DNA from: Desulfobacteraceae bacterium | GTDB lineage: Bacteria; Desulfobacterota; Desulfobacteria; Desulfobacterales; UBA11574 | Reading direction: 5' to 3' | Length of the DNA stretch: 48,163 bases | Assembly: GCA_030604635.1 (NCBI GenBank) | Contig: JAUVVL010000002.1 | Span: 1 to 48,163, forward strand | Shown: one piece after another, positions 2,887-22,458 of the stretch | Layout of the letters: the number at the start of each line of letters is the position of its first letter | Numbering within the stretch: the stretch's first letter is position 1 | The notes under the pieces: generated by a model | Database searches by the model: none | What the model was told of the DNA's origin: nothing | Seen by the model: the letters and a program-made list of their open reading frames with translations, nothing else | Program-made: the position numbers and the translations under genes

Positions 2887-4902
2887 CTATTTCCCATTGC
2901 CAAAAACAATTTCGCCTATCTTGTTCAAATCATCTATTCCCCGCACCTCATGCGGAAACATCGGCACATTTGTTATTGTGCGGGAGGAAAATATTGAATG
3001 GATCTTTTTGATATATCCTGCCTGCTCAACCCTTTTGGAAGAACAAAAATTACAATCAGTCTGCGGAATAACCATGTTAACTATAATGCTGCCGCAATGG
3101 ATCTTTGCATTATCCAAAGCGCTTACAAGCCGCTCCAACTCAAGTAATCCCATGGCCTCGGCAATAGTGACCGCTGCAAAATTCGTTTTATTGTGATCCA
3201 TAAAGGCTTCCTGAATTCTTCTGACATTTTTGGACATGGCTAAAGCCTTTTCAGCGGCCTTAGCCAGCCTGACCACTCCCTTGTATTTCAATAATAATCT
3301 AAAAAATGCATTTAACCATTCCCTGACCATATCGGGAAGCTCTAAAAAGCGAAGAAGGTGGCCGGTAGGCGATGTGTCCAGGACAAAGATGTCAAATTTT
3401 CCTTCCTTTCTCAGGTCCATGATCTTATCCAGGGCCATGATCTCATCGAGGCCAGGGGGTGCAAGGGTTAAAAGCTCCGTCATGACCTCACGGTCGAATT
3501 TTATATCAACCCCGCCGCCAAGAAATTTGTCGAATATCTCTTCTATCTCTTTTTTGAAATCCTGCTTAAAATCTTCAAACAACTTATCCGCATTTATCTC
3601 AAGAGCGTATAGATTGGTCTTTGGGTAGTGAAGATTGAAGATTGAAGATTGAAGATTTTGATGTATCGGTGTAATTTTATCCCCGATGGTCAATTTGAAT
3701 GAATCGGAGAGTGAATGAGCGGGATCTGTGCAGAAGACAAGTATGTTTTTATCCGGGTTACATTGTGCCAGATGAAGGGCGGCGGCTGAAGCAAGGGACG
3801 TCTTGCCTACTCCGCCCTTACCGCCAAAGAGAACAAATTCCAGGTTGGGATCGATAGCTAAATAGGCCTGGACTTCCTCAACACTGACAACAGCCTTAGG
3901 GGATTCATAAGGTTTGGATATTCCCATAAGATAATCCGCCAGACCCTTCAGTTCTTCCACCCCTCGGATTTCATTAGGAAACAATGGAACTTTGATCAAA
4001 CTATATTGAGAAAAACTCTCTTCGATCTCAGACAAAGGCTGTCTCTGATCCTCTTGCTTTGACGCGCAAAATGCACATTCATGAGCATCTGCCACCCTGT
4101 TGACAATAATCTCCGTCACTGGAATATTGTTTTTCTCTAGAGCACTTAACAATCTCTTTGTCTCAGATGTCGCCATGGGCTCAGGAATAGTTACGGGAAC
4201 AAAGCGGGTTGTCTGCTCGTCTGAAAGCAGTTTTTTAACGCTCTCAATATCAGAGGAAAGCTTATCAATGAAAAAATCACACTCATCTTTCACATACTTT
4301 TTGCCGGTAAAATGGACTGACATGAATCTGTGCTTTTGCTGCATTAAGTCCATGAACTCAATCCATTTTAGCATCTGTTCGGGGAGGCTGAGCATGCGCA
4401 CAGTGTGGCCGGTAGGGGCTGTATCAAGTATCAGGATATCATATATCCCCTCTTTCAAAATATTGGCTATCTCGATGACAGCCATGACCTCATCCATCCC
4501 GGGAAGTGAAAGATTAAAAAATTCAGTAATGTCATTCCTATCGAAATATGTTCCCCTGTCTGCAAGTTTCTTGATTACAGCCTCATTTTTCCGTTTAAAC
4601 TCATCCCCCAGCTTGACAGCATCCAACTCGCGGGCGTACAGATTGCGGATTGTTGATTGTTGATTGTTGATTGTTGACCCTCTGTCCTCTGTAACCTTAT
4701 CACCTATCTCGATGCCAAAGCTGTCCCCCAAAGAATGGGCAGGATCGGTCGAAATCACCAAAACTTTTTTGTCGTTTTGAAAAGACCGTGCAAGATGAAC
4801 AGCCGCAGCCGCAGCCATGGTTGTCTTGCCCACCCCGCCTTTTCCGCCAAAAAGGATAAGGCGAAGCTCTTTGTTTTGAAAATATTCGGGAACGTTAGTC
4901 AT
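2887..4902 (-). CDS. Internally duplicated Get3/TRC40/ArsA-family ATPase (two fused halves), copy 1
   Basis: Two deviant P-loops GGKGGVGKTT and GGKGGVGKTS. Each half carries DPAHSL and DTAPTGHT/L. Each half ends with a CxxCxxK/R motif (CAFCASKQ, CNFCSSKR), like the Get3 zinc-bridging CxxC. 671 aa. Confidence 0.9.
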   Translation of the reverse strand: MTNVPEYFQNKELRLILFGGKGGVGKTTMAAAAAVHLARSFQNDKKVLVISTDPAHSLGDSFGIEIGDKVTEDRGSTINNQQSTIRNLYARELDAVKLGDEFKRKNEAVIKKLADRGTYFDRNDITEFFNLSLPGMDEVMAVIEIANILKEGIYDILILDTAPTGHTVRMLSLPEQMLKWIEFMDLMQQKHRFMSVHFTGKKYVKDECDFFIDKLSSDIESVKKLLSDEQTTRFVPVTIPEPMATSETKRLLSALEKNNIPVTEIIVNRVADAHECAFCASKQEDQRQPLSEIEESFSQYSLIKVPLFPNEIRGVEELKGLADYLMGISKPYESPKAVVSVEEVQAYLAIDPNLEFVLFGGKGGVGKTSLASAAALHLAQCNPDKNILVFCTDPAHSLSDSFKLTIGDKITPIHQNLQSSIFNLHYPKTNLYALEINADKLFEDFKQDFKKEIEEIFDKFLGGGVDIKFDREVMTELLTLAPPGLDEIMALDKIMDLRKEGKFDIFVLDTSPTGHLLRFLELPDMVREWLNAFFRLLLKYKGVVRLAKAAEKALAMSKNVRRIQEAFMDHNKTNFAAVTIAEAMGLLELERLVSALDNAKIHCGSIIVNMVIPQTDCNFCSSKRVEQAGYIKKIHSIFSSRTITNVPMFPHEVRGIDDLNKIGEIVFGNGK
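3630..3657. repeat. Heptamer array (GAAGATT x4) inside the Get3-like CDS, encoding QNLQSSIFNL
   Basis: Four exact 7-nt units read through in-frame on the minus strand. It is the same unit as the intergenic CTTCAAT arrays. Confidence 0.9.
4641..4675. repeat. Heptamer array (GATTGTT/GATTGCG x5) inside the Get3-like CDS, encoding STINNQQSTI
   Basis: Five 7-nt units lie at the equivalent loop of the N-terminal half, just before NLYARELD. Confidence 0.85.
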
Positions 4903-4973
4903 TTGTCATTTGTCATTTGTTATTAGTTATTGGTTATTAATTATTGGTTATTAATTATTGGTTATTAATTATT
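4897..4973. repeat. STRR-like heptamer array, 11 units (AGTCATT/TGTCATT/GGTTATT/AATTATT)
   Basis: Exactly 77 nt (11 x 7). It fills the whole spacer between the stop of 4973..5872 and the start codon of 2887..4902. Confidence 0.9.
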
Positions 4974-5872
4974 CACTGGACCTTGGACAATCTTATTTCC
5001 AGCAGATTATTTCTAAGATGAACCTGCTGGCTATCGAAATTTGCTTCACAGGGCAGCTGGATGATTTCCGCCCAGGGGGAGCCGGTTTTTTCGGATTTGA
5101 CCACCAGCTCATCTCCGTGAATTTCCAGTTTTAAATCAGATGCCGCCACCCTTTTTGCTTCCATAATCACCCGGATGTGCGAGCCTTCATCGAATATGTC
5201 CAATAACCGGTCTTTGGTCTCTTTCCTCCATTTTTCCTGCTCTCCCATCAGCCACCAGCTAAATAAAACCTTTTCTCCGGTCTCGTGGTCTGTCCTGGCC
5301 CTTTCAAAAGAGAGAATCGGGCAGCCGACCACTTTCTCTGCGATGGGATTGATCGTCTCCTTAATGTTCAGAAGAACATGCATATGGTTTGGGGCATCGA
5401 TGAGTTTGGCCAGTTGGTCGATCCTGGCGTGACGGTTGTCCCGGAGGTACCACAAAATATCCTGGCCGTCAGGATCGAGTCTGGCAGAAATCTTTTCGAT
5501 AGTTTCCAGATCGATCTTCAAAAGAGAAGCCTGCATGATTATTCTTTTCTGCCAGGTTTCACAATCGTTTACCACGAACCAGATCCTGGAATCCCCTGAG
5601 GCTTTTCCAGCCTTATAAAAAAGACATACGGCTTGTTTTCTCCTTAAAACATAATGGAGTTTTTCTACCTTTAACGCTTTGATATCATTTACCAGGATTT
5701 TAAACCGAATAGTGCGTCCCTGGCAGATCATCAGCCTTTGATTGGTAAGATATAACCCGGCAATCTTCCACCCGGAGCGCAAGCTATCCTTATATGCCCC
5801 CTGGCCTTGGATGATAATATGCTCACCATCTTGAAGGTGGGGGATGCCGGTTTTTTGGAAATCTCTTTGCAT
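4973..5872 (-). CDS. Three-part protein: PH/GRAM-like domain, wHTH-like segment, C-terminal alpha-crystallin (Hsp20-like) domain
   Basis: N-terminal GWKIAGLYLTNQRLMICQG..W motif pattern of GRAM/GLUE-type PH domains. Middle DILWYLRDNRHARIDQLAKLI. C-terminal LLDIFDEGSHIRVIMEAKRVAASDLKLEIHGDELVV..IQLPCEAN..NNLLEIRLSK resembles an ACD. Confidence 0.55.
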   Translation of the reverse strand: MQRDFQKTGIPHLQDGEHIIIQGQGAYKDSLRSGWKIAGLYLTNQRLMICQGRTIRFKILVNDIKALKVEKLHYVLRRKQAVCLFYKAGKASGDSRIWFVVNDCETWQKRIIMQASLLKIDLETIEKISARLDPDGQDILWYLRDNRHARIDQLAKLIDAPNHMHVLLNIKETINPIAEKVVGCPILSFERARTDHETGEKVLFSWWLMGEQEKWRKETKDRLLDIFDEGSHIRVIMEAKRVAASDLKLEIHGDELVVKSEKTGSPWAEIIQLPCEANFDSQQVHLRNNLLEIRLSKVQ

Positions 5873-5906
5873 GGCATTTCACGATTGACTATTGACCACT
5901 GCCAAC

Positions 5907-7670
5907 TTACATCTTCTCCAACAATTTCCTAAGCGCTTCCGTCTTATTTTTGATGAGCCCGCTTTCACCTTGGGCCATGGCCTCTTTTACTTTAAATATG
6001 ACTGACTCAATCTGTCGAAGATAAGAAGTCGACAATTTTCCCTTTTTTTCCTCAACAACCAGTTCAGCCGCACGGATCATGCTGTCGGCCTGGATGTTAA
6101 TCTCCAATGACTCGCGTTTTTTCATATCTTCTTCGGCATGCGCTTCAGCCTCACTGACCGCCTGCTTTACCTGTTCATCCGACAACAGGTATGAAGCATC
6201 GATCTTGATGCCGGTCTGTTTTTCGGTGTGCAGCTCCTGAGCAGAGACTTTCACGATTCCGTTCACATCGATCTTAAAGGAGACCTCCACATGGGCCTTT
6301 CCCCTGGGCAGGGTTGGAATATCGGTCAACTGGAATTGCCCCAGGCTGAAATTGTCTACAGCCATCTCCCGCTCACCCTGGAGGACATGAATATCCATCA
6401 CGGCTTGATTATCCTCGGCGTTGGTAAATATCTGCCCGGCAGATGTGGGTATGGCGGCGTTTCTGTGGATGATCTTTGTAAAAAGACCGCCCTGTGTTTC
6501 AACACCTAATGAAAGCGGGGTTACGTCAACCAGTACAACATCGCTAATCTCTCCGGTCAAAACCCCGGCCTGGACAGCCGCCCCGATTCCCACTACCTCA
6601 TCAGGGTTGATCTTGACATAAGGTTTTTTATTAAAGATTTTTTCCACCAGTTCTCTTACAGACGGCATTCGGGTGGAGCCTCCCACCAACACGATCCGAT
6701 CGATCTCATCCGGAGACAGCCGGGCATCAGATAAGGCCAGCCGTGTAGGGCCGACGAGCTTTTCCCTCAAATCCGAAGTTATCGCTTCAAATGTTTCCCG
6801 ATCAATTGAGACCTCCGGATCTTTTAATTTGCCGTTTTGGGTCCTGCCCGCTCGTGCCCTGTCCGCCTCGCTCCACCCGGCAGGAGGGCAGGCGGGTTTG
6901 ATAAAAGGAAGGGAAATTTTGACACCGGGTTGGCAGGAAAGCTCCCTTTTGGCCTTTTCACAGGCCTCTTTCAAACGCTGTAGTGCGTATTTGTCTGATC
7001 TTATATCAACCCCATGTTCATTTAAAAATTTTTCAGCAAAGTAATCAAGCAGCCTTTGGTCCCAGTCATCGCCGCCAAGCCGGGTGTTGCCGCTGACAGC
7101 TTTGACATGAAAAAAACCGTCTCCCAGCTCCAGGATGGACACGTCAAACGTCCCTCCGCCCAGGTCCCAGACCAGGATCGTTTGAATATCTTCACGATCC
7201 AGCCCATAAGCCAGGGAGGCCGCCGTAGGCTCGTTGATTATCCTTATCACATCAAGGCCGGCTATCCTGCCGGCATCTTTGGTGGCCTGGCGCTGACCGT
7301 CATTGAAATAGGCAGGAACCGTGATAACGGCCTTTTTCACCTCTTCTCCAAGATAGTTCTCAGCGTCTGATTTTATCTTGCGCAAAATAAAGGAGGATAT
7401 CTCCTGGGGGGAATAGCTCCTGCCATTAAGAGAGACTCTGTAGTCGCTGCCAATATGCCTCTTAATGGACATGACCGTCTTTTCGGTATTGGCTGCGGCC
7501 TGGCTTTTGGCTACCGAGCCGACCAGTTTATGCCCCTGGGCTGTTTCCGCAAAAACAGAGGGCGTCAGATTTTCCCCTTCAGCGTTTTTAATCACTTTGG
7601 CCTGCCCATCTTCTATAATGGCTGCCACCGAGTAAGTAGTGCCAAGATCTATGCCGATTGCTTTAGTCAT
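5907..7670 (-). CDS. Atypical Hsp70/DnaK-family chaperone (short lid, extra loop insert)
   Basis: GIDLGTTYSVAA, DLGGGTFDVSIL, VLVGGSTRMP and a substrate-binding beta domain (VDVTPLSLGVET). 587 aa, so the C-terminal lid/tail is shorter than in DnaK. About 18 extra residues follow LPFI. Confidence 0.9.
   Translation of the reverse strand: MTKAIGIDLGTTYSVAAIIEDGQAKVIKNAEGENLTPSVFAETAQGHKLVGSVAKSQAAANTEKTVMSIKRHIGSDYRVSLNGRSYSPQEISSFILRKIKSDAENYLGEEVKKAVITVPAYFNDGQRQATKDAGRIAGLDVIRIINEPTAASLAYGLDREDIQTILVWDLGGGTFDVSILELGDGFFHVKAVSGNTRLGGDDWDQRLLDYFAEKFLNEHGVDIRSDKYALQRLKEACEKAKRELSCQPGVKISLPFIKPACPPAGWSEADRARAGRTQNGKLKDPEVSIDRETFEAITSDLREKLVGPTRLALSDARLSPDEIDRIVLVGGSTRMPSVRELVEKIFNKKPYVKINPDEVVGIGAAVQAGVLTGEISDVVLVDVTPLSLGVETQGGLFTKIIHRNAAIPTSAGQIFTNAEDNQAVMDIHVLQGEREMAVDNFSLGQFQLTDIPTLPRGKAHVEVSFKIDVNGIVKVSAQELHTEKQTGIKIDASYLLSDEQVKQAVSEAEAHAEEDMKKRESLEINIQADSMIRAAELVVEEKKGKLSTSYLRQIESVIFKVKEAMAQGESGLIKNKTEALRKLLEKM
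6834..6899. repeat. GC-rich REP-like segment embedded in-frame in the Hsp70 gene (encodes KPACPPAGWSEADRARAGRTQ)
   Basis: The sense strand cccgcctgccctcctgccgggtggagcgaggcggacagggcacgagcgggcagg closely matches the intergenic element at 43351-43400 and 45080-45130. Confidence 0.7.
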
Positions 7671-7739
7671 GTTCTCCTTCGTCGAACATTTTGGTCATTA
7701 GTCATTGGTGTTGACTGCCGATGACCACTGACCACTGTC

Positions 7740-8351
7740 CTAGGACTCATTTGAAAACTCTGATAGAAGCTTTAATATATTTTCCTCGGCAAATGGTTTA
7801 TCGATGAAGCTGCAGACCCCTTTGGCCGTTGCTTCTTCCATTCTTTCAGCACTGCCATATGCAGAAATGATGGCTACCAATGTCTCTGAGTTCATTTTTT
7901 TGATTTTAGAAAGGAGATCCATTCCATCACCATCAGGCAGTTTTAAATCTAAAAATACCAGATCGGGTGATTTCTTTAGACAGTCAGTGCCTTCACTTAT
8001 GGTATTGGCAACAATTACATTATACCCTTTGGCGCTTAAAATATTAGATAAAAGCCAACACAAATCCTCTTCGTCGTCTATTATCAAAATATTTTTTATC
8101 CGCTTTTTTGGAAACGAAATCGGCTTTATTTCTTGTTTGTTTCTTTTTAAATCCTCTTCGTCCTTTTGTTTAAAATAATGCCTCAGCTCTTCAAGCTCTT
8201 CAGGTTTACGCCAACCAGAGAGACCGCTTCGCCGTACAAGCGCCTCATCATGTTTTATTATTCCCTTAAGAATCCAACTCTCTAACCTGGACTGATGAAT
8301 TGCCCTGTATATATCCGCACCTCTTATGACATCGTATTTTATTGTTTTCAT
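7740..8351 (-). CDS. Response regulator with N-terminal GYF_2-like domain and C-terminal REC
   Basis: N-terminal LESWILKGIIKHDEALVRRSGLSGWRKPEELEEL (GYF-like). REC: ILIIDDEEDL, LVFLDLKLPDGDG, IIS, DKPF. Confidence 0.8.
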   Translation of the reverse strand: MKTIKYDVIRGADIYRAIHQSRLESWILKGIIKHDEALVRRSGLSGWRKPEELEELRHYFKQKDEEDLKRNKQEIKPISFPKKRIKNILIIDDEEDLCWLLSNILSAKGYNVIVANTISEGTDCLKKSPDLVFLDLKLPDGDGMDLLSKIKKMNSETLVAIISAYGSAERMEEATAKGVCSFIDKPFAEENILKLLSEFSNES

Positions 8352-8389
8352 GAGCTTTCCTCTTATACCCCCTTAAATACAGATCGTAT

Positions 8390-8529
8390 ATTGAAGATTG
8401 AATATTGAATACCTGCCCGACGGACGGCAGGCGGGTTTGTGGAAATCGCTCCTGTCTGCGTGCGGACACGCACAGGCAGGTCGCTCTGTTTTTTAAAAAA
8501 ATTGACGGAATTCCTTCAATCTTCAATTT
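8390..8529. mobile_element. MITE/REP-like element bounded by inverted heptamer arms (family R1, copy a)
   Basis: Left arm attgaagattgaatattgaat, right arm ttccttcaatcttcaat. Interior gtggaaatcgct..ctctgttttttaaaaaaattgacggaattcc is shared with copies at 22009, 40413 and 43247. Confidence 0.55.
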
Positions 8530-8535
8530 GCAGGT

Positions 8536-9261
8536 CTATTTTATAGGCAAAGAGATTGTAAAAATAGTGCCGTAGTAGGGCTTGCTTTCTACTGCTATGG
8601 TCCCATCATGACTAACAACGATTCCGTAGCATATAGATAGCCCCAAACCTACCCCCGATGATTTTGTGCTAAAAAATGGATCAAATATCCTGATAATATC
8701 TTCTTCCGGAATACCCCCCCCTGTATCTTTAATCTTTAGGATAAAATTGTCTCTATCATTCTCAGTAACAATAGTCATTTCGCCTTTTTCAGGCATAGAC
8801 TCAACCGCATTGATCATCACGTTTGAAAAAACACGCTTGATCTGTTCATTATCGACGTTTATTATTGATAATTCAGCATTTAACTTTTTGTGTACTTTCA
8901 CGTGTTGTGAAACAATTTTGGTTCTAACAGAATCTAAAACACTTTCCAGGACTTCATGAATATCATGAGGCTTAATATTCAGTTTCGGCGGCCTGGCACA
9001 GTTAAGGAGTTCGGTAATTAGAAAATTAATCCTTTCCGTATTTCTGGTAATAACCTCAATATGTTTGACCCAGGGGCTGTCTGGAGCACAACCCTTCTTA
9101 AGCTGCTGGACAGACATAGATACGTTACCGAGAGGATTTCTTATCTCATGGGCTATACTGGCGGCTATCCTGCCGGTGAAGGCAAGCCTTTCGGAACGAA
9201 CCAGCTCTTCCTTTCTATCACCAAATTCTCCATAAGAATGCTTGCCAACTGAGTTTGACAT
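8536..9261 (-). CDS. Soluble histidine kinase (HisKA + HATPase_c)
   Basis: H-box SIAHEIRNPL, N-box NVMINAVESMP, G-boxes DTGGGIPEE and GVGLGLSICYG. Start set at ATG 9261 (MSNSVGKH). The longer ORF-track N-terminus (MTNDQ..) is read out of a heptamer array. Confidence 0.8.
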   Translation of the reverse strand: MSNSVGKHSYGEFGDRKEELVRSERLAFTGRIAASIAHEIRNPLGNVSMSVQQLKKGCAPDSPWVKHIEVITRNTERINFLITELLNCARPPKLNIKPHDIHEVLESVLDSVRTKIVSQHVKVHKKLNAELSIINVDNEQIKRVFSNVMINAVESMPEKGEMTIVTENDRDNFILKIKDTGGGIPEEDIIRIFDPFFSTKSSGVGLGLSICYGIVVSHDGTIAVESKPYYGTIFTISLPIK

Positions 9262-9334
9262 GTTCTTCCTCCAGTTCTCATGTTCTCCTGTTCTCCTTCG
9301 TCGAACATTTTGGTCATTGGTCACTGGTCATTAG

Positions 9335-9700
9335 TCATTGGACTATCGGTTTCTTGCCTATAGATTTAATATAGGCGTTCAGCTTTTTACCGATCGCTTC
9401 TATGTCTTCATTCAGTGAATTGAACTCATCATCATTTAGCAATTTCCTGTTATTTCCCTTAGCAAGCCAAGTTCTTGTCTCATACAGTGAACCCCGTGCA
9501 TAATAACAGAACTGTTTGTTTTCCTTATAAGAGAAACGACCAAAACCCTCACTTAAATTTGCTGCCACTGAATCGGCGGATCTAACTAACTGCTTGCCTA
9601 TTGTGTCCTTAGCGAAATAATTCCATTGAATTACAATTTTCCAAACTTTCTCACCAAGTTCCATTGCGAGTTGATAAACTTGGAGATCTTCGATTTGCAT
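9335..9700 (-). CDS. Four-helix-bundle protein (23S rRNA intervening-sequence protein family), copy 1
   Basis: DLQVYQLAMELGEKVW..KDTIGKQLVRSADSVAANLSEGFGRFSYKENKQFCYYARGSLYET is characteristic of the family. About 85% identical to 10855..11226. Start at internal ATG 9700; the upstream MVISHWSLVIG is heptamer-derived. Confidence 0.8.
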   Translation of the reverse strand: MQIEDLQVYQLAMELGEKVWKIVIQWNYFAKDTIGKQLVRSADSVAANLSEGFGRFSYKENKQFCYYARGSLYETRTWLAKGNNRKLLNDDEFNSLNEDIEAIGKKLNAYIKSIGKKPIVQ

Positions 9701-9829
9701 AATCAACTCCTCACTTCTCAATAACCAATAACCAATGACTAATGACCAATGACTAATGACCACTAACCAGCCACTAACCCCTGTTCAGTACCCCCCCGCC
9801 TCGCAAGCCCGTCCGCCATTGGCTTCGCC

Positions 9830-10834
9830 TCAGGCGAATGCCGGGCGGGCGAGAGCGTTGCGGGCAGGCACTGCCCCCCGATCGGTTATGATTCGCCTGA
9901 ATATCTGATCCCACTCTTCCAGGGAATCACCCGAAAAAGAAACTAATCTCCTTGTACCGCTACCGGCATAGATAATATCCAGCACCCTTTTTTTCTTTAG
10001 GACGTCACTTAAGTTTCTGTTTTCCATTGCACAAGCAACGAGTTCTCCGATGGGAATTTCAAAGGCAACTTTTTGCTCAAAGTCATACCACCAACAAATT
10101 CTTTTATCGGTAAGATACAGGTGACCGGGTCTCCATGTATTGTCTATAATACCCTCGGTCTCCATCAGATACCACATCTTTCCACTGCAAATGACCTGCT
10201 CTCCAGTGGTTAAGAACTTCGCCGCACTCTCTTCAAAAACAGGAAGCGCAGGATCTTCTTCAGGGACAAGGCCCAGTTCATTCATCCTTTTCTCTATGGC
10301 CTTTTTCAATTGAGACACATCTAAAGCACTCAGCCTTGCGACCTTATTATCTCCCAGAAGCAGAGATAACTCGTCCCTCTCCTTTTTTTCAGTAAAATGT
10401 TCCCCTTTCTTGGTCACCAGACCCCGTATCTTTACCAGGGGAGTCTCAAATAAAACCTTCCCAAAATCTTCATGATAGAGAAACAGCCTCTCGCCGCTAA
10501 GAAAAAAGTAACCGTATCTCCAGGCAGTATATATCCCCTCACTTGAGTAGTATGCCCCTAACATCTTGAGAACGATCTTTTCTCCCTGGGCCAAAGAGCT
10601 TTTTTTCTTGCTCCTGTGTTCCCGTTCCCAGGCCCGTATACGCTCATCCCAGGACTGCATAATCCCATATTTCAGCATGGTCTCCATGCCGGCCAGGGCC
10701 GCGCGCAGGTTAACCCCGATCAAAGGAATGCCCGCAACCGAGACGATAATATCGGCATGGATCACCAGGCCCTTGTCCAGGACCCGGTCAAGAAGATCTA
10801 CCAGAGTTGCGTTAGTGCTGCGTTGTGGTTCCAT
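9830..10834 (-). CDS. gvpJ: GvpJ/GvpA-family domain fused to two PH/GRAM-like domains
   Basis: N-terminal TLVDLLDRVLDKGLVIHADIIVSVAGIPLIGVNLRAALAGMETMLKYG is the gas-vesicle shell fold signature. It is followed by two repeats with WRYGYFFLSGERLFLYHE and WRPGHLYLTDKRICWWYD. The last ~16 aa are read from a REP element. Confidence 0.75.
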   Translation of the reverse strand: MEPQRSTNATLVDLLDRVLDKGLVIHADIIVSVAGIPLIGVNLRAALAGMETMLKYGIMQSWDERIRAWEREHRSKKKSSLAQGEKIVLKMLGAYYSSEGIYTAWRYGYFFLSGERLFLYHEDFGKVLFETPLVKIRGLVTKKGEHFTEKKERDELSLLLGDNKVARLSALDVSQLKKAIEKRMNELGLVPEEDPALPVFEESAAKFLTTGEQVICSGKMWYLMETEGIIDNTWRPGHLYLTDKRICWWYDFEQKVAFEIPIGELVACAMENRNLSDVLKKKRVLDIIYAGSGTRRLVSFSGDSLEEWDQIFRRIITDRGAVPARNALARPAFA

Positions 10835-10854
10835 AATTAGTCATTTGTCATTTG

Positions 10855-11226
10855 TCACTGGTCATTTGTCATTGGTTGCTTTCCTATGGATCTAATGTAT
10901 GCATTCAACATCTTTCCTATCGTCTCAATATCCTGATTCAACGAATCAAATTCATTATTTCTTATCAATTTCCTGTTTTTCCCTTTAGTGAGCCAAGTTT
11001 TGGTCTCATACAATGAACCGCGAGCATAATAACAAAACTGTTTATTTTCTTTATATGAGAAACGACCAAACCCCTCACTTAAATTTGCAGCCACAGAATC
11101 TGCAGATCGAACTAACTGCTTGCCTATTGTGTCCTTAGCGAAATAATTCCACTGAGTTACAATACCCCAAACTTTTTCGCCGAGGGTCATTGCCATTTGA
11201 TAGACTTTCAGATCCTCCAAATTCAT
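10855..11226 (-). CDS. Four-helix-bundle protein (23S rRNA IVS protein family), copy 2
   Basis: Paralog of 9335..9700 (DLKVYQMAMTLGEKVW..FCYYARGSLYETKTWL). Start at ATG 11226. Confidence 0.8.
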   Translation of the reverse strand: MNLEDLKVYQMAMTLGEKVWGIVTQWNYFAKDTIGKQLVRSADSVAANLSEGFGRFSYKENKQFCYYARGSLYETKTWLTKGKNRKLIRNNEFDSLNQDIETIGKMLNAYIRSIGKQPMTNDQ

Positions 11227-11306
11227 GGTCTCCTCCTCATGCCTTCCGTTACCGATGACTAATGACCAATGACTAATGACCAATGACTAATGACCAGTGA
11301 CCACTG

Positions 11307-12071
11307 TTACACAAAACTATAAGGAGGCCAGGGTCCGGTGTAGCGGACGGAAAATCCATCCATAGCATCTATTTTTTCCAGCTCAGTTCCTAGTTCTTTA
11401 CTTCCATCCTTAGTAAGCAAACAAGATAGATTCATGAACATCTGTTTATCTGTGTCTTCTGTTTTTTTGGTCTTTTCCACGCGGAGATCATCCACATAGG
11501 GCTTGATTTTCGCATAGAACTCATTAAAGTATTGGTCTGCCTTATCTTCCATCTCTTTTTTTAAGATTCCCTCCAGTTTTTGCCTGTACATATAGGCCAG
11601 TCCTCTTGGCTTTGATTTGATTTCTTCGTTTAACTTTTTGATTTCAACACTTTCTTCGGCAAGGTTCTGAGCCATTACTTCCGAATCCCAGAAGATCTGA
11701 ACTCCATATTCAGCCTTATTGCCAACCTTTTCAATTTTTGTTTTAAAACTGTCATAGTCCCGCTTTAAGCAATTCTTCATATTCTCTTCAGGGCTGGTAA
11801 GCCCGTCACCCAGAATGATGGTATCAAAACCAAAAGGAAGCACGGTGCCAAATTTTTCCCAGGCAATATCAACCACCTTTTGATGTGTGCTTACCCAGCC
11901 CTTTAATATTTCTTCATTTTCCGACTGGTACAGCTCAGCATGACAATTATGGACTACAGCACTTAAATCTTTGTAAGGAACTGTATAGACACTATTGCCT
12001 TCTATGCCGATCCTGCCCAGATTAACGCTTTCGTTGCCCTTTACAATGCAGTAAAGATATCTACCGTTCAT
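11307..12071 (-). CDS. gvpF: GvpL/GvpF-family gas vesicle protein
   Basis: N-terminal GRYLYCIV..GIEGNSVYTVPYKDLSAVV and C-terminal YTGPWPPYSFV are hallmarks of GvpF/L. Confidence 0.9.
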   Translation of the reverse strand: MNGRYLYCIVKGNESVNLGRIGIEGNSVYTVPYKDLSAVVHNCHAELYQSENEEILKGWVSTHQKVVDIAWEKFGTVLPFGFDTIILGDGLTSPEENMKNCLKRDYDSFKTKIEKVGNKAEYGVQIFWDSEVMAQNLAEESVEIKKLNEEIKSKPRGLAYMYRQKLEGILKKEMEDKADQYFNEFYAKIKPYVDDLRVEKTKKTEDTDKQMFMNLSCLLTKDGSKELGTELEKIDAMDGFSVRYTGPWPPYSFV

Positions 12072-12255
12072 AGGTTCAAGGTTCAGAGGTTCAGAGGTTC
12101 ATGGTTGAATAAATAATGCTTAATAATCAATGGGTAACAATTAATAATTAACAATTGATTATTGATTATTAGATTGGGGTTCAGGTTCAGTGATCATTAG
12201 GCATTATCTAAATATTTATTCCTCAAATCTTCAATCTTCAATCTTCAATCTTCAA
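12072..12255. repeat. Composite STRR-like heptamer block (AGGTTCA, ATTGATT, CTTCAAT units)
   Basis: aggttcaaggttcagaggttcagaggttca .. attgattattgattatt .. cttcaatcttcaatcttcaatcttcaat fills the gvpF-gvpK spacer. Confidence 0.85.
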
Positions 12256-12558
12256 TTATCCATCCCACCTTTCAGGATTAATCATTTTGTCTAACAGCTC
12301 ATCTACGATATTATCCAGACCGTCTCTTACAGATTTAACCGACTCACTTATTCCCTGTTCTTTCTTTATCTCCTCGATCGCTGTGTCCAGATCCATCAGG
12401 GCTCGCCCCAACCTGTCAATCTCTTCTTCGGTAAGACTTCCCCCTTCCATTCTTTTTAGAGCCTGAAGCCTGAGGGCCTCCTTGATGATCTCCACCAGGG
12501 CTATAACTAATCCCAGGACCCCGTGTTTAAGATTTTTCTCGTCAATATCTATTGGCAT
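12256..12558 (-). CDS. gvpK: Gas vesicle protein GvpK
   Basis: GVLGLVIALVEIIKEALRLQALKRMEGGSLTEEEIDRLGRALMDLDTAIEEI matches the conserved GvpK core. The start overlaps the upstream gene by 10 nt. Confidence 0.85.
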   Translation of the reverse strand: MPIDIDEKNLKHGVLGLVIALVEIIKEALRLQALKRMEGGSLTEEEIDRLGRALMDLDTAIEEIKKEQGISESVKSVRDGLDNIVDELLDKMINPERWDG

Positions 12559-12956
12559 TTTCTAAAGTGTCCATTGGTCGTTGTATATATACGGCCTGAT
12601 GCTTTATATCCACAACTGAAGCAACCGCTATTATCGAATTCATCTCTTATTACTTGCCTTCCACAATGAGGGCAATGTATTCTATATAAACCGGTATTTC
12701 CCTTTGTGCCGTGACTACCCACCTGTCCTTGCTGATGATGCACGGATTGAGTCCCTGCCTGCTCCAGATCTTCTTCTGTTCCCTGCCAACCGCATAAATA
12801 GCAGCCCTTGTTCATCAACTCCTTTTTGACTACTCGCCTCCCGCAAGCAGGACACATCACCCAATAAGGGCTTCCATCTTTTCTTTCCGCTTCGTCTTTG
12901 ACTTCGTTTAAAACTTTTTGTACAATAGGGCCAAAAACCATATCTCCTGCTTTCAC
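12549..12956 (-). CDS. Double zinc-ribbon protein
   Basis: Two copies of CPxCGRxV-x8-GCxxCGW/Y (CPACGRRVVKKELMNKGCYLCGW; CPHCGRQVIRDEFDNSGCFSCGY). The same module ends the adjacent GvpJ-like protein. Confidence 0.6.
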   Translation of the reverse strand: MKAGDMVFGPIVQKVLNEVKDEAERKDGSPYWVMCPACGRRVVKKELMNKGCYLCGWQGTEEDLEQAGTQSVHHQQGQVGSHGTKGNTGLYRIHCPHCGRQVIRDEFDNSGCFSCGYKASGRIYTTTNGHFRKCQ

Positions 12957-13031
12957 CTTTCCTTTTTCAGCTTTACATCATGCATCCCATGCCCGCCCTG
13001 GCGGAAATGACCAATGACCAGTGACCACTGA

Positions 13032-13391
13032 CTAATGACCACTGACAACTTCTTGAGCCTTTGCCTTGGCACTGATCCACCCGCACCAGTGGCAGCCGGT
13101 GGTTATAAGATCCTCCACGGGAACCCTCTTATCACATTGAGGACAGTTTTCCTTGGCGATCAGAGCATCTTTCCAGGCTGCTGTCTCATAATTGGTTCCT
13201 GAAGGAAATTCCAAACCGTATTTGGCTGCTGTCTCAAAGGATGACAGGGCAGCCCTGATCTTGATGCCCAGCAGTTCGACTCCGGCCACAGATACAGTAA
13301 TGTCTGCGTTAATCACAAGTCCCTTGTCCAGTATCCTGTCTATTACGTCAGCTAAACCGCCACCACCATTTCGAGATGGTTCTATAGTCAT
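13032..13391 (-). CDS. gvpJ: GvpJ/GvpM/GvpA-family protein with C-terminal zinc ribbon
   Basis: GLADVIDRILDKGLVINADITVSVAGVELLGIKIRAALSSFETAAKYGL followed by CPQCDKRVPVEDLITTGCHWCGW. Confidence 0.85.
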   Translation of the reverse strand: MTIEPSRNGGGGLADVIDRILDKGLVINADITVSVAGVELLGIKIRAALSSFETAAKYGLEFPSGTNYETAAWKDALIAKENCPQCDKRVPVEDLITTGCHWCGWISAKAKAQEVVSGH

Positions 13392-13412
13392 TATTATCCT
13401 CCTTCAGTCCTA

Positions 13413-14324
13413 TTATCCTATCCTGAAAATTCCTTCACAATAGTCATTCCCATCGGGAAGAGTTGAATCAAATTCAAAACGGGCTCCTGGATTAATTGCC
13501 CGTGCTACGTTATTGATATACTCGATGCAATAAAAAGAGCAGCCTACCCATCCAGGCTCCTGATCCAGCCCCATACTCTTAATCACCGAATACTGCCAGC
13601 AGGCGTTCACCCTAATAGTTGATTCTACGTCACCTTTATCTACAACCTTAACCTTTGGACTCCCTATAATGGCAGACATTGCTCCATAAGTGTTAGCCAT
13701 GGCAGCGGCATCATTTCCTTTAATGCCCAATTTCTCCTTTGATGACAGATATTTTGCCCCGATTGAATCGAGGGCCAATTTCTTTGCCTTTAAAAGGCCT
13801 TTCCAGGTTCCTCCGTGCCTTTTAATCAAATCCCTCTCCATCTGATAAGTAGCCCCAATATACTTGACTAAGTACATGATCCTGACCCAATCTTTGCTTG
13901 CCAGTTCGAACTTTTCCCTGGTAGGAAGCTTTTTTATAACCTCTTCAATTGTATCAAAAAGAGCATCCTTCATTTCAGGCATCAATTCTTCAAATATTTC
14001 CCGTGCCCGGTGTATACATTCCACCGCCTTTTCGTGCTCTCCTCCGGCCTGGTGGATCTCACCGAGAGTTACATAGGGAAGTGTTTTGTCCTGCGCTTTA
14101 CTGATCGCTTTTTTCGCCCGCTCCATAGCCAGGTCAAGGTGACCGGTGTTCATATATGAATCTGCTAAATTATTGCAAATAAGAGCGGCGTTATCTGAGC
14201 CCCCATCTAAGGCTTGCCGGTAATGCTCGATTGAACCTGCATAATCTCCTTTCGAAGCACACCTGTATCCCATTTTCATGGAATGGCTCCAGCCTATTTT
14301 GTCCAGCCCATATTTAGCCATCAC
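13413..14324 (-). CDS. TPR-repeat protein with Cys-containing C-terminal domain (possibly ATC-hydrolase-like fold)
   Basis: N-terminal TPR-like helices (YRCASKGDYAGSIEHYRQALD..; GEHEKAVECIHRAREIFE). C-terminal NACWQYSVIKSMGL..CSFYCIEY..INPGARFEFDSTLPDGNDYCEGIFRI resembles that family from memory only. Confidence 0.45.
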   Translation of the reverse strand: MMAKYGLDKIGWSHSMKMGYRCASKGDYAGSIEHYRQALDGGSDNAALICNNLADSYMNTGHLDLAMERAKKAISKAQDKTLPYVTLGEIHQAGGEHEKAVECIHRAREIFEELMPEMKDALFDTIEEVIKKLPTREKFELASKDWVRIMYLVKYIGATYQMERDLIKRHGGTWKGLLKAKKLALDSIGAKYLSSKEKLGIKGNDAAAMANTYGAMSAIIGSPKVKVVDKGDVESTIRVNACWQYSVIKSMGLDQEPGWVGCSFYCIEYINNVARAINPGARFEFDSTLPDGNDYCEGIFRIG

Positions 14325-14333
14325 AGCACCTCG

Positions 14334-15713
14334 TCAAGCAAACTGGTAGAGCGCTTCTTTAAACTGAAACTCGTTAATGGCTCTTTCATATAGGTCATTG
14401 AGCTCTGCATAGGTGATATTTTCTAATTCTATAACACCTCTTTCAAGTTGATATGAGTATTGACTCCAATCGGAAGTTACTAACATGTCATTCATCTCAC
14501 AGTATTCGTATAATGGGGTTCCGGGGAAAGGGGTTACTATTGAAAATCCTGCGCTGTCCAGACCGTGATTTAGTGCCAGATCCTTGGCAAGGTTTATTGT
14601 ATCCTCAACTGTTTCAACAGTCTCTGTAGGGTAGCCCATCATGAAATATCCATAAGAAGATATGCCCGTTTTTGAAGTTATCTTTACAGTTTCCCGCACC
14701 TGATCGATGGTGAAACCTTTGTTGCAGAGGTCAAGTATCCTCTGGTTTCCGAATTCAATACCATAGAAAATTACAATACAGTTGGCCTTTTTCATCTCTT
14801 CAAGTAGCTCCTCTGACACCAAACTTACCCTCCCATCGCAGGCCCAGGCAAGATCATCAAGACCTCTCTCTGCCATACCCCGGCACAGGTCAATGGTCCA
14901 CTTTTTGTTTACAATGAGAAGGTCATCAAGGAATCTGATATATCTTACGCCAAACTCTTTATAAATCTGCTCCAGTTCATCCAGAACATTCTCCACGGAT
15001 CGCCTTCTGTGTTTTCTTCCCCATATACGAGGAGCAGCGCAGAATGCACAATGATAGGGGCATCCTCTTGTTGATAAGACAGGGCTGAATGTTTGGCCTT
15101 CAGTCCATAACCCGCGGTAGGCGGGATTGTGTAGTAAATTACGGGCAGGAAAAGCGAATGTGTCAAGGCTCTTAACAAAGGGCCGATCCGGATTAACGAT
15201 TATATCATTATCACGTTTGAAGGTTATACCTTTAATTGCGGTAAGATCGCCTCCCTTTGTTAGACAATTTATCAAATCCAGGCTGGTTATCTCACCTTCA
15301 CCCCTAACGCAAAAATCCACCGAATCATTATTAATAACAGTTTTATGCTCAAAATGTATATGAGGCCCTCCCAGAATTACTTTTATATCCGGACTGATTT
15401 TCTTTACCTTTTCTGCAAGATAAAGAGCGCTGTTTATGCGCGCTGTAATAGCTGTTATGCCAACGAATTGAGGAGCCTCTTTTTCAATCTTTTTTATGAC
15501 TTCATCATGGGAAAGGCTTCTTGTCCTGGCTTCGATCAAGCTAACATCTATGCTATTTTCCAACAACGTTGCGGCAATATATGCAAGACCAAGAGGGGGA
15601 TATACTTCGTGCATTTTAGTTGCATTAGTGGCCCCATGGCTTTTTGCCATGTCTGAAACCCGATCAGGCGGGTCGACCAAAACACATTTCACCCCTTGAT
15701 CCTTTCCAGTCAT
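14334..15713 (-). CDS. B12-binding-domain radical SAM enzyme, paralog 1
   Basis: N-terminal Rossmann-like cobalamin-binding region (PPLGLAYIAATL..GGPHIHF) and CxxxCxxC cluster motif STRGCPYHCAFCAAP. About half the residues are identical to 29507..30895. Confidence 0.85.
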   Translation of the reverse strand: MTGKDQGVKCVLVDPPDRVSDMAKSHGATNATKMHEVYPPLGLAYIAATLLENSIDVSLIEARTRSLSHDEVIKKIEKEAPQFVGITAITARINSALYLAEKVKKISPDIKVILGGPHIHFEHKTVINNDSVDFCVRGEGEITSLDLINCLTKGGDLTAIKGITFKRDNDIIVNPDRPFVKSLDTFAFPARNLLHNPAYRGLWTEGQTFSPVLSTRGCPYHCAFCAAPRIWGRKHRRRSVENVLDELEQIYKEFGVRYIRFLDDLLIVNKKWTIDLCRGMAERGLDDLAWACDGRVSLVSEELLEEMKKANCIVIFYGIEFGNQRILDLCNKGFTIDQVRETVKITSKTGISSYGYFMMGYPTETVETVEDTINLAKDLALNHGLDSAGFSIVTPFPGTPLYEYCEMNDMLVTSDWSQYSYQLERGVIELENITYAELNDLYERAINEFQFKEALYQFA

Positions 15714-15797
15714 CTCTTCCCCTTTGACCTGATTTCAGCATTGTAAATGTTTAACGACCTCTACAGCCTTCGTCTATTCCTGGTGCTGTTTTGGCTT

Positions 15798-16592
15798 CTA
15801 ATCCGGAACATATTGTACTTTATTCCTGCAATGTTTACATTCCATAACCCTTCCATCAGTTTTGAGTACTATATCTCCATCACAATATGGACATTTTTCT
15901 TTGCTTGTCGGTCCCGGTGGGGGTTTTGTGGACTTGCTTTTATGTGGCTTAAGCGGAGCCGGAGTATAGGGCTTAATTGGCACAGGAGTGTATGGCTTGA
16001 GTGGTGCTGGACTGTAGTCCTTAAGCGGAACTGGACTGTAGTCCTTAAGCGGAACCGGACTGTAGTCCTTTAACGGCGCTGGTTTGTACGGCTTAATAGG
16101 CACAGGAGTGTATGGCTTGAGTGGTGCTGGACTGTAGTCCTTAAGCGGAACTGGGCTGTAGTCCTTTAATGGCGCTGGCTTGTACGGCTTAATTGGCACA
16201 GGAGTATATGCCTTCAATGGTGCCGGCTTATATGGCTTGAGCGGAGCTGGGGTGTAGGACTTGAGTGGAACCGGGGCATAGTCCTTCAATTGCACTGGTT
16301 TGTATGGTTTAACAACTGGTGTGTACGGCTTCAACGGTGCTGGTTCGTATGGCTTAACCGGTACTGGACTGTAGTCCTTTAATGGCGCTGGTTTGTACGG
16401 CTTAACTGGCACAGGAGTATATGCCTTCAATGGTGCCGGCTTATATGGCTTGAGCGGCACAGGAGTATAGGCCTTCAGTCGCTTAGGGCTATAGGAAGAC
16501 CTGGATTTGGATCCTGGATGGTCTTTGCCACACTTTATAAATCTTTCCCGCCACCTTTTGTCCTTACTTAATGCCTCAATTCTTTCCTGCAT
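15798..16592 (-). CDS. Proline-rich tandem-repeat protein (about 22 x P-[AV]-P-[LIV]-K-x-Y-x) with C-terminal zinc ribbon
   Basis: PAPLKPYK/PVPLKDYS/PVPIKPYK units span aa ~34-212. C-terminal CPYCDGDIVLKTDGRVMECKHCRNK. Confidence 0.7.
   Translation of the reverse strand: MQERIEALSKDKRWRERFIKCGKDHPGSKSRSSYSPKRLKAYTPVPLKPYKPAPLKAYTPVPVKPYKPAPLKDYSPVPVKPYEPAPLKPYTPVVKPYKPVQLKDYAPVPLKSYTPAPLKPYKPAPLKAYTPVPIKPYKPAPLKDYSPVPLKDYSPAPLKPYTPVPIKPYKPAPLKDYSPVPLKDYSPVPLKDYSPAPLKPYTPVPIKPYTPAPLKPHKSKSTKPPPGPTSKEKCPYCDGDIVLKTDGRVMECKHCRNKVQYVPD
15957..16493. repeat. 24-bp-period coding tandem repeat (P-x-P-L-K-x-Y-x units)
   Basis: Reiterated cttaagcggaactggactgtagtc-type units with higher-order near-identical blocks (e.g. 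15990-16070 versus 16110-16160). Confidence 0.85.
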
Positions 16593-16634
16593 TTTTAGCT
16601 CCTTTCAAAGACCACCAATCTCAATATGAAGGCA

Positions 16635-16934
16635 TCATGAATGAATCCATCTCCTGTATTTTTCATCCGGTGATTCCGAATACTTCCCCTCGGAAGATAA
16701 CCGTCCTGTTTTGCCTAATTCTCTTTGCCCTGTATGTGTAAGTTCAACTTTTCCTGATCTGTATCCACCTTTGCCGGCTGCAAATACAAGAACAAACCCC
16801 TTCCTGCCTAATTGCTCTAGCACATTCTTTAAACTGTCAATTTCTGCGCCCATTTTACGAGCTAATTTGGATATAGTAATATATAAGCCTTCATCAAGGA
16901 TTAGGCTTAGAATTGTTTTTTCATAATGAGTCAC
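16635..16934 (-). CDS. Small winged-helix (MarR/TrmB-like) protein
   Basis: ILSLILDEGLYITISKLARKMGAEIDSLKNVLEQLGRKGFVLV is a helix-turn-helix plus wing pattern. Confidence 0.5.
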   Translation of the reverse strand: MTHYEKTILSLILDEGLYITISKLARKMGAEIDSLKNVLEQLGRKGFVLVFAAGKGGYRSGKVELTHTGQRELGKTGRLSSEGKYSESPDEKYRRWIHS

Positions 16935-16958
16935 ATTAAGTAGCCTCCACCTATTTTC

Positions 16959-17189: not shown

Positions 17190-17338
17190 TTTGCCTATCC
17201 CTCATACTTTATGGGTTTTATAATTTCCTCTACTATCCTTAGGACTTTTAATTCAGTCCTACCATGCTTCTATTTAATACCTCCTAATACGTGGCCCTTT
17301 AAGGGGACTCCGCAGGAGGTTTTCGGATGGAGATTGAA

Positions 17339-17782: not shown

Positions 17783-17866
17783 CTCCTTTCTGTTTTAAAA
17801 GGGCCAGGTTCTTGCGTGCCTCTAAACTTGTAAAGAATATGGGCCAGGGCAAGCGACGGATCTTGC

Positions 17867-18601: not shown

Positions 18602-18621
18602 TTCCCTCTCCTTCCCCAAAA

Positions 18622-18921: not shown

Positions 18922-18959
18922 CTTTTCTATCCTCCTTTTTATAACCTAAATTGCTCAAC

Positions 18960-22455: not shown

Positions 22456-22458
22456 TGC

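Follow-up and report, generated by a model that had tools for sequence, protein, structure and literature searches.

In gas vesicle shells made of GvpA and resolved by cryo-electron microscopy, the beta-hairpin of the subunit faces the gas, and the helices and the C-terminus face the cytoplasm. Gas vesicles are being engineered as acoustic reporters. The nucleation of the vesicle and the site of action of the essential minor proteins GvpJ and GvpM are open questions; a role in nucleation is proposed for GvpJ, GvpM and GvpS, none of which was detected in intact vesicles of the systems studied (PMC9994262). In haloarchaea, the C-terminal 25 amino acids (aa) of GvpM contact GvpF, GvpH and GvpL, and the N-terminus contacts GvpL (PMC8716928). 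The exposed tail of GvpB was shown to be the binding site of GvpU (bioRxiv 10.1101/2023.06.01.543273). Here we describe a gene at positions 9830..10834 of a 48,163 bp stretch of Desulfobacteraceae bacterium DNA (contig JAUVVL010000002.1, assembly GCA_030604635.1; the whole stretch is called the window below), in which a GvpM-type core is followed by two modules with a predicted PH-like fold. We call it gvpM-PH.

By its best-scoring model and its gene position, GvpM-PH is the GvpM orthologue of a large gvp cluster. We propose, tentatively and with somewhat less than even confidence, that it is a GvpM-type nucleation or assembly factor, the cytoplasmic PH pair of which docks partners encoded in the same cluster.

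Results

Identity of the Core

A single 334-aa open reading frame (ORF) with an ATG start fills the interval 9830..10834. The ORF listed there in an earlier note on this DNA, made from the letters alone, is therefore real, and its strand can be added, the minus strand. The stop-to-stop frame covers 9833..10840, so that an N-terminal extension is impossible, and the N-terminus MEPQR... is common to all homologues in the alignment. The Pfam model Gas_vesicle (PF00741) matched residues 10–48 with 62.3 bits (E = 4.7e-17, for a cut-off of 25), which places the core in this family, and it also matched all the 53 aligned homologues. The family profile over residues 5–57 matched the solved GvpA structures 8gbs (1.2e-10) and 7r1c (1.1e-8). 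Approximately 35 columns of the core were invariant or near-invariant. In the helix that joins the core to the first PH-like domain, W62, D63, R67 and E70 were invariant and W69 was near-invariant among the homologues.

The core had been described in the earlier note as GvpJ/A. The GvpA-family fold was recovered, but not the J type. The best model was halo_gas_GvpM of NCBIfam (NF046091), with 97.4 bits (2.9e-28) and positions 1–67 covered out of 67. The GvpJ model (NF046090) gave 54.3 bits (1e-14), below its curated cut-off of 125, and the NCBIfam GvpA model 44.3 bits (1.3e-11). As the curated cut-off of halo_gas_GvpM, 109 bits, was not reached, the protein was filed as GvpM-like, outside the haloarchaeal GvpM equivalog. 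Just three ORFs with a Gas_vesicle core were present in the window, corresponding to GvpA, GvpJ and GvpM-PH (Table 1). The gvpJ paralogue reached 99.3 bits on the GvpJ model, and gvpM-PH was the sole GvpM-like ORF. It occupies the position of gvpM, at the end of a gvpJ-gvpK-gvpL-gvpM block and next to gvpL. The model scores and the J-K-L-M synteny led us to reject a GvpJ identity in favour of GvpM.

The Two PH-like Domains

The repeats at residues ~85–186 (PH1) and ~212–318 (PH2) aligned with each other by BLASTP (E = 2e-6, 20% identity), and their family profiles matched with an HHalign probability of 98.4% (E = 4.7e-15). The presence of two homologous repeats behind the core, of about 105 aa each, was thus borne out. 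The AlphaFold2 prediction, for which 53 homologues were used, had a mean predicted local distance difference test (pLDDT) of 73 and a predicted template modelling score (pTM) of 0.47. PH1 was predicted as strands between residues 89 and 170 followed by a helix at 173–186 (pLDDT ~76–93), and PH2 as strands between 214 and 302 followed by a helix at 305–318 (pLDDT ~80–92). A Foldseek search against the PDB gave 166 matches at E ≤ 1e-3, and all the 50 listed were PH-domain or tandem-PH proteins. The best was BBS5 (6.8e-9, probability 1.0). The others included the DH-PH-PH of FARP1/FARP2, the PH-PTB of Dok7 and IRS-1, Rtt106, Spt16M, the archaeal adaptor CheF, centaurin and the PH domains of BTK and GRK2; several of them, such as CheF, Rtt106 and Spt16, are protein-binding adaptors. 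The structure prediction called for in the earlier note, for which the absence of a PH-like fold would have been decisive, therefore returned this fold, and both modules are predicted to belong to the PH-like superfamily. That two PH/GRAM-like domains are fused to a GvpA-family core is confirmed by the Pfam match of the core, the modelled domains and the Foldseek matches. Each PH domain showed approximately 25 invariant or near-invariant positions; W105, R106 and W234 were near-invariant and G237 was invariant.

The assignment to curated families was less direct, as GvpM-PH scored under every PH-type Pfam gathering score. The GRAM model (PF02893) gave 18.6 bits (E = 0.0018) at residues 234–277 only, for a cut-off of 23.6. 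The Vps36 GLUE model (PF11605) gave 15.6 bits (E = 0.019), for a cut-off of 24.1, and the orthologue of Desulfosporosinus fructosivorans exceeded it with 33.3 bits. Among the 53 homologues, Vps36-GLUE matched 47 (best E 4.5e-10), GRAM 43 at E ≤ 0.01 (best E 8e-8), bPH_3 18 (best E 3.5e-6), PH nine (best E 2.3e-6) and CheF-arch nine (best E 0.00021). The two domains are GRAM-like with no demonstrated GRAM membership; they are PH-like by predicted fold and in no curated PH family at threshold.

The motif W..G.[LF][YF]L[ST]..R[LI] was found at residues 105 and 234 of GvpM-PH and at residue 56 of the ORF 18960..19367. These were three matches in the six-frame translation, compared to 2e-4 expected, and none was seen in 200 shuffled windows. 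The earlier note had located the motif in both repeats and in 18960..19367, which is correct, and also in 4973..5872. The latter ORF carries WKIAGLYLTNQRL and misses the literal pattern because of one extra residue between W and G, although its N-terminus is homologous according to HHalign.

One function that the fold could suggest is the binding of anionic membrane lipids, with nucleation or positioning of the vesicle at the cytoplasmic membrane, perhaps together with Get3/ArsA-like ATPases. Lipid binders are found among the best Pfam relatives (GRAM, GLUE, BBS5, PH), and the cluster encodes two ATPases of the Get3/ArsA family. However, the motif K-Xn-[KR]-X-R is absent from beta1-beta2 of both domains. 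The predicted beta2 strands begin with WRYG and WRPG, that is, a single Arg and no [KR]-X-R, and neither domain would qualify as a phosphoinositide-binding PH domain. Both are near neutral (mean net charge of −1.5 for PH1 and +0.7 for PH2 over the 53 homologues), and the fusion partners described below are proteins of the Gvp machinery. Gas vesicles themselves contain no lipid. A lipid ligand, one of those envisaged in the earlier note, is unlikely, and we give very little weight to a role at the membrane.

The PH Module on Other Proteins of the Cluster

PH1, PH2, the stand-alone protein 18960..19367 and the N-terminus of 4973..5872 form one family, with HHalign probabilities of 98.4–99.8% (E from 5e-15 to 8e-29). 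The stand-alone protein matched PH1 with 99.1% and PH2 with 98.7%. The N-terminus of 4973..5872 matched both with 98.7% (E ~2e-16), and this protein ended with an Hsp20 domain at residues 213–298 (NCBIfam, 2.5e-10). GvpH was considered as a candidate for the Hsp20-like partner and rejected, no Pfam or NCBIfam match to GvpH being found. When the stand-alone PH protein was used as a database query, only close relatives were retrieved, named “PH domain-containing protein” by NCBI, and NCBIfam gave no GvpU match for the PH proteins of the cluster. In D. fructosivorans, the PH protein (127 aa) and the Hsp20-like protein (165 aa) are encoded by separate genes flanking gvpK-gvpL, and the PH gene immediately precedes the gvpM-PH orthologue.

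The PH pair was compared by phmmer to 1.84 billion representative proteins and produced just 118 matches. Nearly all of them started at residue ~83–95, right after the Gvp core, or were fragments. The exceptions were Gvp-related fusions, with almost no other architecture containing the pair. Three metagenomic proteins (P0151, P0155 and P0216) consisted of GvpK, the GvpM core and two PH domains, with Pfam E-values of 1.6e-9 to 2e-10 for GvpK and 7e-9 to 1.5e-8 for Gas_vesicle, both models exceeding their cut-offs in P0151 and P0155. Two proteins (P0232 and P0215) were composed of two PH domains and an Hsp20-like domain. In P0228, PH was fused to proline-rich repeats resembling those of the ORF 15798..16592. 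The PH module is therefore linked by gene fusion to GvpM, GvpK, an Hsp20-like protein and a proline-rich protein. The GvpK-GvpM fusions would imply that the two proteins act side by side.

The product of 15798..16592 is a repeat protein rich in P, K and Y, with repeats of 24/48-nt periodicity and a Cys-rich end segment. We speculate, by analogy with EVH1-type recognition, that such proline-rich repeats might be a ligand of the PH module.

These observations also bear on another role, in which the PH pair would be a steric or solubilising device keeping the GvpM core soluble. It might also block rib polymerisation, confine GvpM to the apex or seam and thereby set the geometry of nucleation. The A, J and M proteins aggregate non-specifically (PMC8716928), the pair is almost always attached to a GvpM-type core, and the AlphaFold2 model shows well-folded domains joined by an acidic linker. 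Yet a simple solubility tag need not be so conserved across phyla (~25 positions per PH domain), and a specific ligand in common is suggested by the fact that Hsp20-like and stand-alone proteins bear the module as well. We consider this role rather unlikely.

Distribution, Zinc Ribbon and Selection

Among 5.8 billion proteins searched, 823 matched. The best 120 were all full-length, with 53–91% identity to GvpM-PH, so that the search for the architecture recommended in the earlier note yielded at least 120 full-length homologues. Where a name was given, it was only “gas vesicle protein” or “GvpJ”. When one genome per GTDB species was scanned, 260 or more of these species genomes, spread over more than 10 phyla and including archaea, encoded a relative. 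The best 80 of the 260 loci were analysed, and nearly all were full-length fusion matches. They belonged to Desulfobacterota, Actinomycetota, Chloroflexota, Atribacterota, Bacteroidota, Planctomycetota, Nitrospirota, Verrucomicrobiota, Ignavibacteria and Acidobacteriota, to the archaeal Methanocellales and Methanophagales, and to Bacillota with the cultured Clostridium sp. ZS2-4, Anaerosacchariphilus polymeriproducens, Marinisporobacter balticus and D. fructosivorans.

The usual protein of the family has ~368 aa and ends with a C4 zinc ribbon, CPxCG-x10-12-GCxxCGW, which was present in 64 of the 74 complete orthologues. The D. fructosivorans orthologue is complete in this respect, with the core, two PH domains and the zinc ribbon. 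GvpM-PH departs from the family-typical architecture, as the ribbon is absent from it and from its close relatives (P0001–P0010, 79–91% identity), a whole ribbon-less clade with unrelated short tails. A GC-rich repeat, CCTGCCCGCAACGCTCTCGCCCGCC, was found at 9844–9868 and 45110–45134 with at most one mismatch (0 expected), and a related sequence near 43280–43400. The copy at 9844–9868 encodes approximately the last 13 aa of GvpM-PH, where relatives carry the zinc ribbon. This lineage has lost the ribbon to repeat-element sequence. The same C4 zinc ribbon is a second shared module of the cluster, found at the C-terminus of GvpJ and, in two copies, in the stand-alone protein 12549..12956 (Pfam DUF7560, 3.1e-7).

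The ratio of nonsynonymous to synonymous substitution rates (dN/dS), calculated against five orthologues, was 0.10–0.23 for the whole gene, 0.10–0.34 for PH1 and 0.17–0.21 for PH2. The gene is under purifying selection. The loss of the ribbon, the tail encoded by a repeat element, the mobile cassettes with heptamer arrays abutting both ends of the gene (see below) and the lack of a visible Shine–Dalgarno-like sequence upstream could have been those of a decaying, non-functional remnant. However, nothing interrupts the reading frame across the two PH domains, the comparison with the nearest relatives that lack the ribbon, L001 and L002, still gave a dN/dS of 0.18–0.21, and the ribbon-less form is kept by the whole clade. 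A remnant is thus extremely improbable, and the pseudogene reading was rejected on the dN/dS values.

Organisation of the gvp Cluster

The gvp cluster extends over ~42 kb (~2887..46635, minus strand), which is unusually large. It encodes two GvpN, three GvpF/L, three Hsp20-like proteins, two ArsA/Get3 ATPases, CDC48, DnaK, two B12-type radical SAM proteins and about seven proteins containing zinc-finger repeats of the DnaJ type (CxxCxGxG). Next to gvpA lies a sigma-54 activator gene. A promoter and terminator scan of 9200–12300 gave counts that were not above those of shuffled sequence. The features of gvpM-PH and the genes closest to the subject are listed in Table 1.

Table 1. Position of the gvpM-PH features and of related genes in the window. 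Loci are counted among the 46 that span 14 kb or more.
Feature	Position	Strand	Evidence	Loci
gvpM-PH, entire gene, encoding a GvpM-like core, the conserved helix, PH1, the acidic linker, PH2 and a repeat-derived tail	9830..10834	-	ORF list	
Stop codon of gvpM-PH	9830-9832	-		
aa 1-57, GvpA-family core (alpha1-beta1-beta2-alpha2), GvpM type	10664..10834	-	Pfam, NCBIfam, PDB profile matches	
aa 58-84, conserved charged helix joining core to PH1	10583..10663	-	AlphaFold2 helix 58-78; alignment columns	
aa 85-186, predicted PH-like domain 1, 7 strands and C-terminal helix	10277..10582	-	AlphaFold2, Foldseek, HHalign, motif	
PH1 motif WRYGYFFLSGERL	10484-10522	-		
aa 187-211, linker between PH1 and PH2, acidic (net charge -4)	10202..10276	-	Charge and isoelectric point over 53 homologues; pLDDT 67-69	
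aa 212-318, predicted PH-like domain 2, 7 strands and C-terminal helix	9881..10201	-	AlphaFold2, Pfam	
PH2 motif WRPGHLYLTDKRI	10097-10135	-		
aa 319-334, non-conserved tail in place of the C4 zinc ribbon of the family	9833..9880	-	Alignment, repeat	
PH (aa ~11-116), middle domain and Hsp20-like alpha-crystallin domain	4973..5872	-	HHalign, NCBIfam	
DnaK/Hsp70	5907..7670	-		27/46
gvpL, upstream of gvpM-PH	11307..12071	-	NCBIfam GvpL 1.1e-58	46/46, normally directly upstream
gvpK	12256..12558	-	Pfam GvpK 2.1e-19	46/46
gvpJ paralogue, C-terminal zinc ribbon	13032..13391	-	NCBIfam GvpJ 9.8e-29	45/46
Stand-alone PH protein, 135 aa	18960..19367	-	Motif at aa 56; HHalign	
gvpA, major shell protein	44552..44758	-	NCBIfam GvpA 1.7e-36	

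The synteny was evaluated by tblastn of the 50 proteins of the window against the 80 loci, and the counts were made over the 46 of them that reached 14 kb. In addition to the genes of Table 1, GvpF/L was found in 46 of them, the PH-x-Hsp20 protein in 41 (one or two genes downstream of gvpM-PH), Hsp20 in 32, CDC48 in 31 and ArsA/Get3 in 29. The usual order was GvpJ - (Zn2 or Hsp20) - GvpK - GvpL - GvpM-PH - DnaK - PH-Hsp20 - ArsA, DnaK being the next gene after gvpM-PH in many relatives. The GvpJ-GvpK-GvpL-GvpM-PH part was kept in 45–46 of the 46 loci and mirrors the haloarchaeal gvpJKLM. It was also kept in an independently Pfam-labelled Coprothermobacterota contig (L081), in which the succession was GvpA, GvpN, GvpF/L-DnaJ, GvpF/L, GvpG, GvpO, GvpF/L, GvpJ, HSP20, GvpK, GvpL, GvpM-PH, HSP70 (directly downstream), HSP20 and CDC48. 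The association of ArsA, gvp and hsp20 genes was already on record in 2010 (PMC2963123). Electron microscopy showed gas vesicles in Desulfosporosinus cupriresistens, and D. fructosivorans is said to have an identical gvp cluster (PMC12739157). As the latter carries a gvpM-PH orthologue, such clusters can make real vesicles.

One of the three GvpF/L paralogues (35972..36994) ends with a J-domain (residues 263–315, ~2e-12 with the DnaJ models), a fusion also seen in the Coprothermobacterota contig. The presence of this J-domain and of DnaK in one cluster implies a Hsp70 cycle dedicated to vesicle assembly.

Two paralogous genes of the 23S_rRNA_IVP family (IVP, four-helix bundle), at 9335..9763 and 10855..11283, flank gvpM-PH and are 82% identical over 300 nt. 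The cassettes (9310–9769 and 10836–11306) are bounded by inverted arrays of TGACCAA-like heptamers, one of which abuts the ATG of gvpM-PH. IVP genes were present at matching gvpL/gvpM/dnaK junctions in five other loci (L003, L004, L011, L033 and L036), which suggests that the IVP cassette is mobile and inserts preferentially in this context.

Three small proteins without family match (27488..27991, 27138..27476 and 22150..22455) have similar ends, …MEIEY, …VVIDY and …VSFDY, and the homologues of the 167-aa protein, found in 11 loci, end with KKW[KQ]xMx[IL][DE]Y. This shared C-terminal peptide could be a docking peptide for a domain of the cluster. Two genes downstream of gvpA, the ORF 42012..43079 encodes a 355-aa protein with 9.7 tandem units of 54 nt (18 aa) resembling EVADLISEFKAEGPERAR, at 42435–42956, followed by an acidic region. 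It may be a GvpC-like shell-binding repeat protein.

Discussion

We propose that GvpM-PH acts in the early steps of vesicle formation. In this model, the hydrophobic core (residues 1–57) would co-assemble with GvpA and GvpJ, most likely at the nucleation stage. The conserved helix and the PH pair, together with the zinc ribbon in most relatives, would occupy the place of the hydrophilic tail of GvpM. The pair would project into the cytoplasm, because the region after helix alpha2 is on the cytoplasmic face in solved GvpA shells. There, it would be a protein–protein docking platform for the PH-only protein, the PH-Hsp20-like protein and GvpL/GvpK. Through these docked partners, chaperones (DnaK, CDC48 and the ArsA/Get3-like ATPases) would be recruited, which would hold the aggregation-prone A, J and M proteins soluble and bring them to the growing vesicle. 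The architecture, the predicted class of fold, the GvpM-type identity, the purifying selection, the neighbouring genes and the fusions are results of the analysis; the incorporation into the vesicle, the outward orientation and the identity of the ligands are our inference.

A docking or tethering device had been suggested in the earlier note. Docking is plausible, and the fusions and conserved neighbours favour the docking of assembly factors and chaperones over the tethering of finished vesicles. The idea that a minor shell subunit displays PH modules on the vesicle surface is unsupported in that form, as the core is GvpM-type, and GvpJ, GvpM and GvpS are reported absent from intact vesicles of model systems (PMC9994262). 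It can be reworded as a stable minor shell subunit of mature vesicles, whose outward PH domains would serve to tether vesicles, to cluster them or to fix them to some other structure of the cell, in a role comparable to that of GvpC (a surface binder) or GvpU (a clustering factor). The core is a bona fide GvpA-family fold, and the C-terminal position of the PH domains predicts an exterior location. The several PH-bearing proteins and the proline-rich repeat protein of the cluster could build multivalent networks, and GvpU shows that vesicles can be clustered via the tail of a shell protein (bioRxiv 10.1101/2023.06.01.543273). In addition to the failure to find GvpJ/M/S homologues in intact vesicles, a 25-kDa appendage per subunit would be hard to fit in the tightly spaced ribs, judging from the published shell geometry, and the genes conserved nearby encode assembly factors and chaperones rather than proteins of the cytoskeleton or the membrane. 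We see such a tether as improbable, with a small but real chance.

A more speculative scheme can also be drawn. Some bPH domains form oligomeric rings. GvpM-PH, with or without the zinc ribbon, might be the physical seed of the vesicle: PH pairs assembled into a small oligomer would place GvpM cores in a ring beforehand, as a template for the apex of the cone, and the PH modules on the Hsp20-like and stand-alone proteins would feed GvpA in. We find this scheme rather improbable. If true, the 25-kDa appendage would be a natural fiducial marking the nucleation site in cryo-electron tomography.

Several observations weigh against the proposed nucleation and docking role. Haloarchaeal GvpM can do without its last 25 aa (PMC8716928), so that a function borne by the tail need not be essential. 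The zinc ribbon is gone from GvpM-PH without obvious gene decay, which means that at least one appended module is expendable. The haloarchaeal GvpM–GvpH parallel is an analogy only, as the Hsp20-like proteins have no Pfam GvpH match. The confidence of the AlphaFold2 model is low for the Gvp core and for the relative arrangement of the domains (pTM 0.47). Finally, in the window, an IVP cassette is inserted between gvpM-PH and gvpL and replaces the usual upstream sequence, and no Shine–Dalgarno-like sequence was seen in the 60 nt upstream of the gene.

In a literature search, with most subscription journals outside its reach, gas vesicles were connected to PH, GRAM or pleckstrin domains in no paper. 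Of 8.3 million papers, a single one contained both “gas vesicle” and “pleckstrin”, and its subject was a different one; the sole relevant item retrieved was the known association of ArsA, gvp and hsp20. The earlier note knew of no such fusion, and indeed no described GvpJ/M-PH fusion was found in this search. Precomputed Pfam matches list GRAM, GLUE or bPH_3 beside Gas_vesicle on many homologues: the combination of core and PH is visible in databases and, as far as found, undescribed in the literature. This architecture is the mark of a large gvp cluster class, hardly studied so far, in which CDC48, DnaK, Hsp20 and ArsA/Get3 are encoded as well. This class spans anaerobic bacteria and some archaea, including sediment lineages in which the use of gas vesicles is unexplained. 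The occurrence of one PH module on GvpM, on Hsp20-like proteins and on stand-alone proteins provides a concrete, testable interaction map of the assembly machinery. A large, well-folded appendage on GvpM is an intrinsic mass tag that could be located by cryo-electron tomography or mass spectrometry, and Desulfosporosinus, Marinisporobacter and Clostridium sp. ZS2-4 are cultivable carriers for this purpose.

Comparison with Known Systems

The fold predicted for the PH pair, two helix-capped seven-stranded sandwiches, is common to BBS5, Rtt106, Spt16M, the FARP PH-PH, Vps36 GLUE, GRAM and CheF, and members of the family match the Pfam models GLUE, GRAM, BBL5, CheF-arch and PH_TFIIH. The sequence identity of GvpM-PH with these eukaryotic and archaeal tandem or adaptor PH-like proteins is only 9–21% and, unlike them, its PH domains sit on a gas-vesicle shell-type core, in gvp clusters. 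Among bacterial PH domains (bPH_3/YokE-like), the entry motif “..GE.I” and the strand W-x-x-G-x-hydrophobic-Y-L-T resemble those of GvpM-PH, but the bPH_3 matches in the family are weak, 3.5e-6 at best, and GvpM-PH itself has none.

GvpU of Bacillus/Priestia megaterium is an accessory protein of the cytoplasmic face, a vesicle-clustering factor that binds the shell protein at its C-terminal tail (bioRxiv 10.1101/2023.06.01.543273). GvpJ has PF00741 in common with GvpM-PH, and it also possesses a functionally important C-terminal extension, which binds GvpG, GvpH and GvpL (PMC8716928). However, GvpM-PH scores far lower on the GvpJ model than on that of GvpM (54 versus 97 bits), and a separate, true GvpJ with a zinc ribbon is encoded at 13032..13391. 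The closest system is haloarchaeal GvpM, with its bacterial counterpart GvpS, the best-scoring family for the N-terminal 67 aa. Haloarchaeal GvpM is likewise last in a gvpJ-K-L-M block with GvpL, its known partner, adjoining, and both proteins have a hydrophobic GvpA-like core with a RAA(I/L)A-type motif. They differ beyond the core: classical GvpM has ~84 aa and a short hydrophilic tail, whereas GvpM-PH has 334 aa (~368 aa being the norm of its family), adding the conserved helix, the two PH-like domains and, usually in its relatives, the zinc ribbon.

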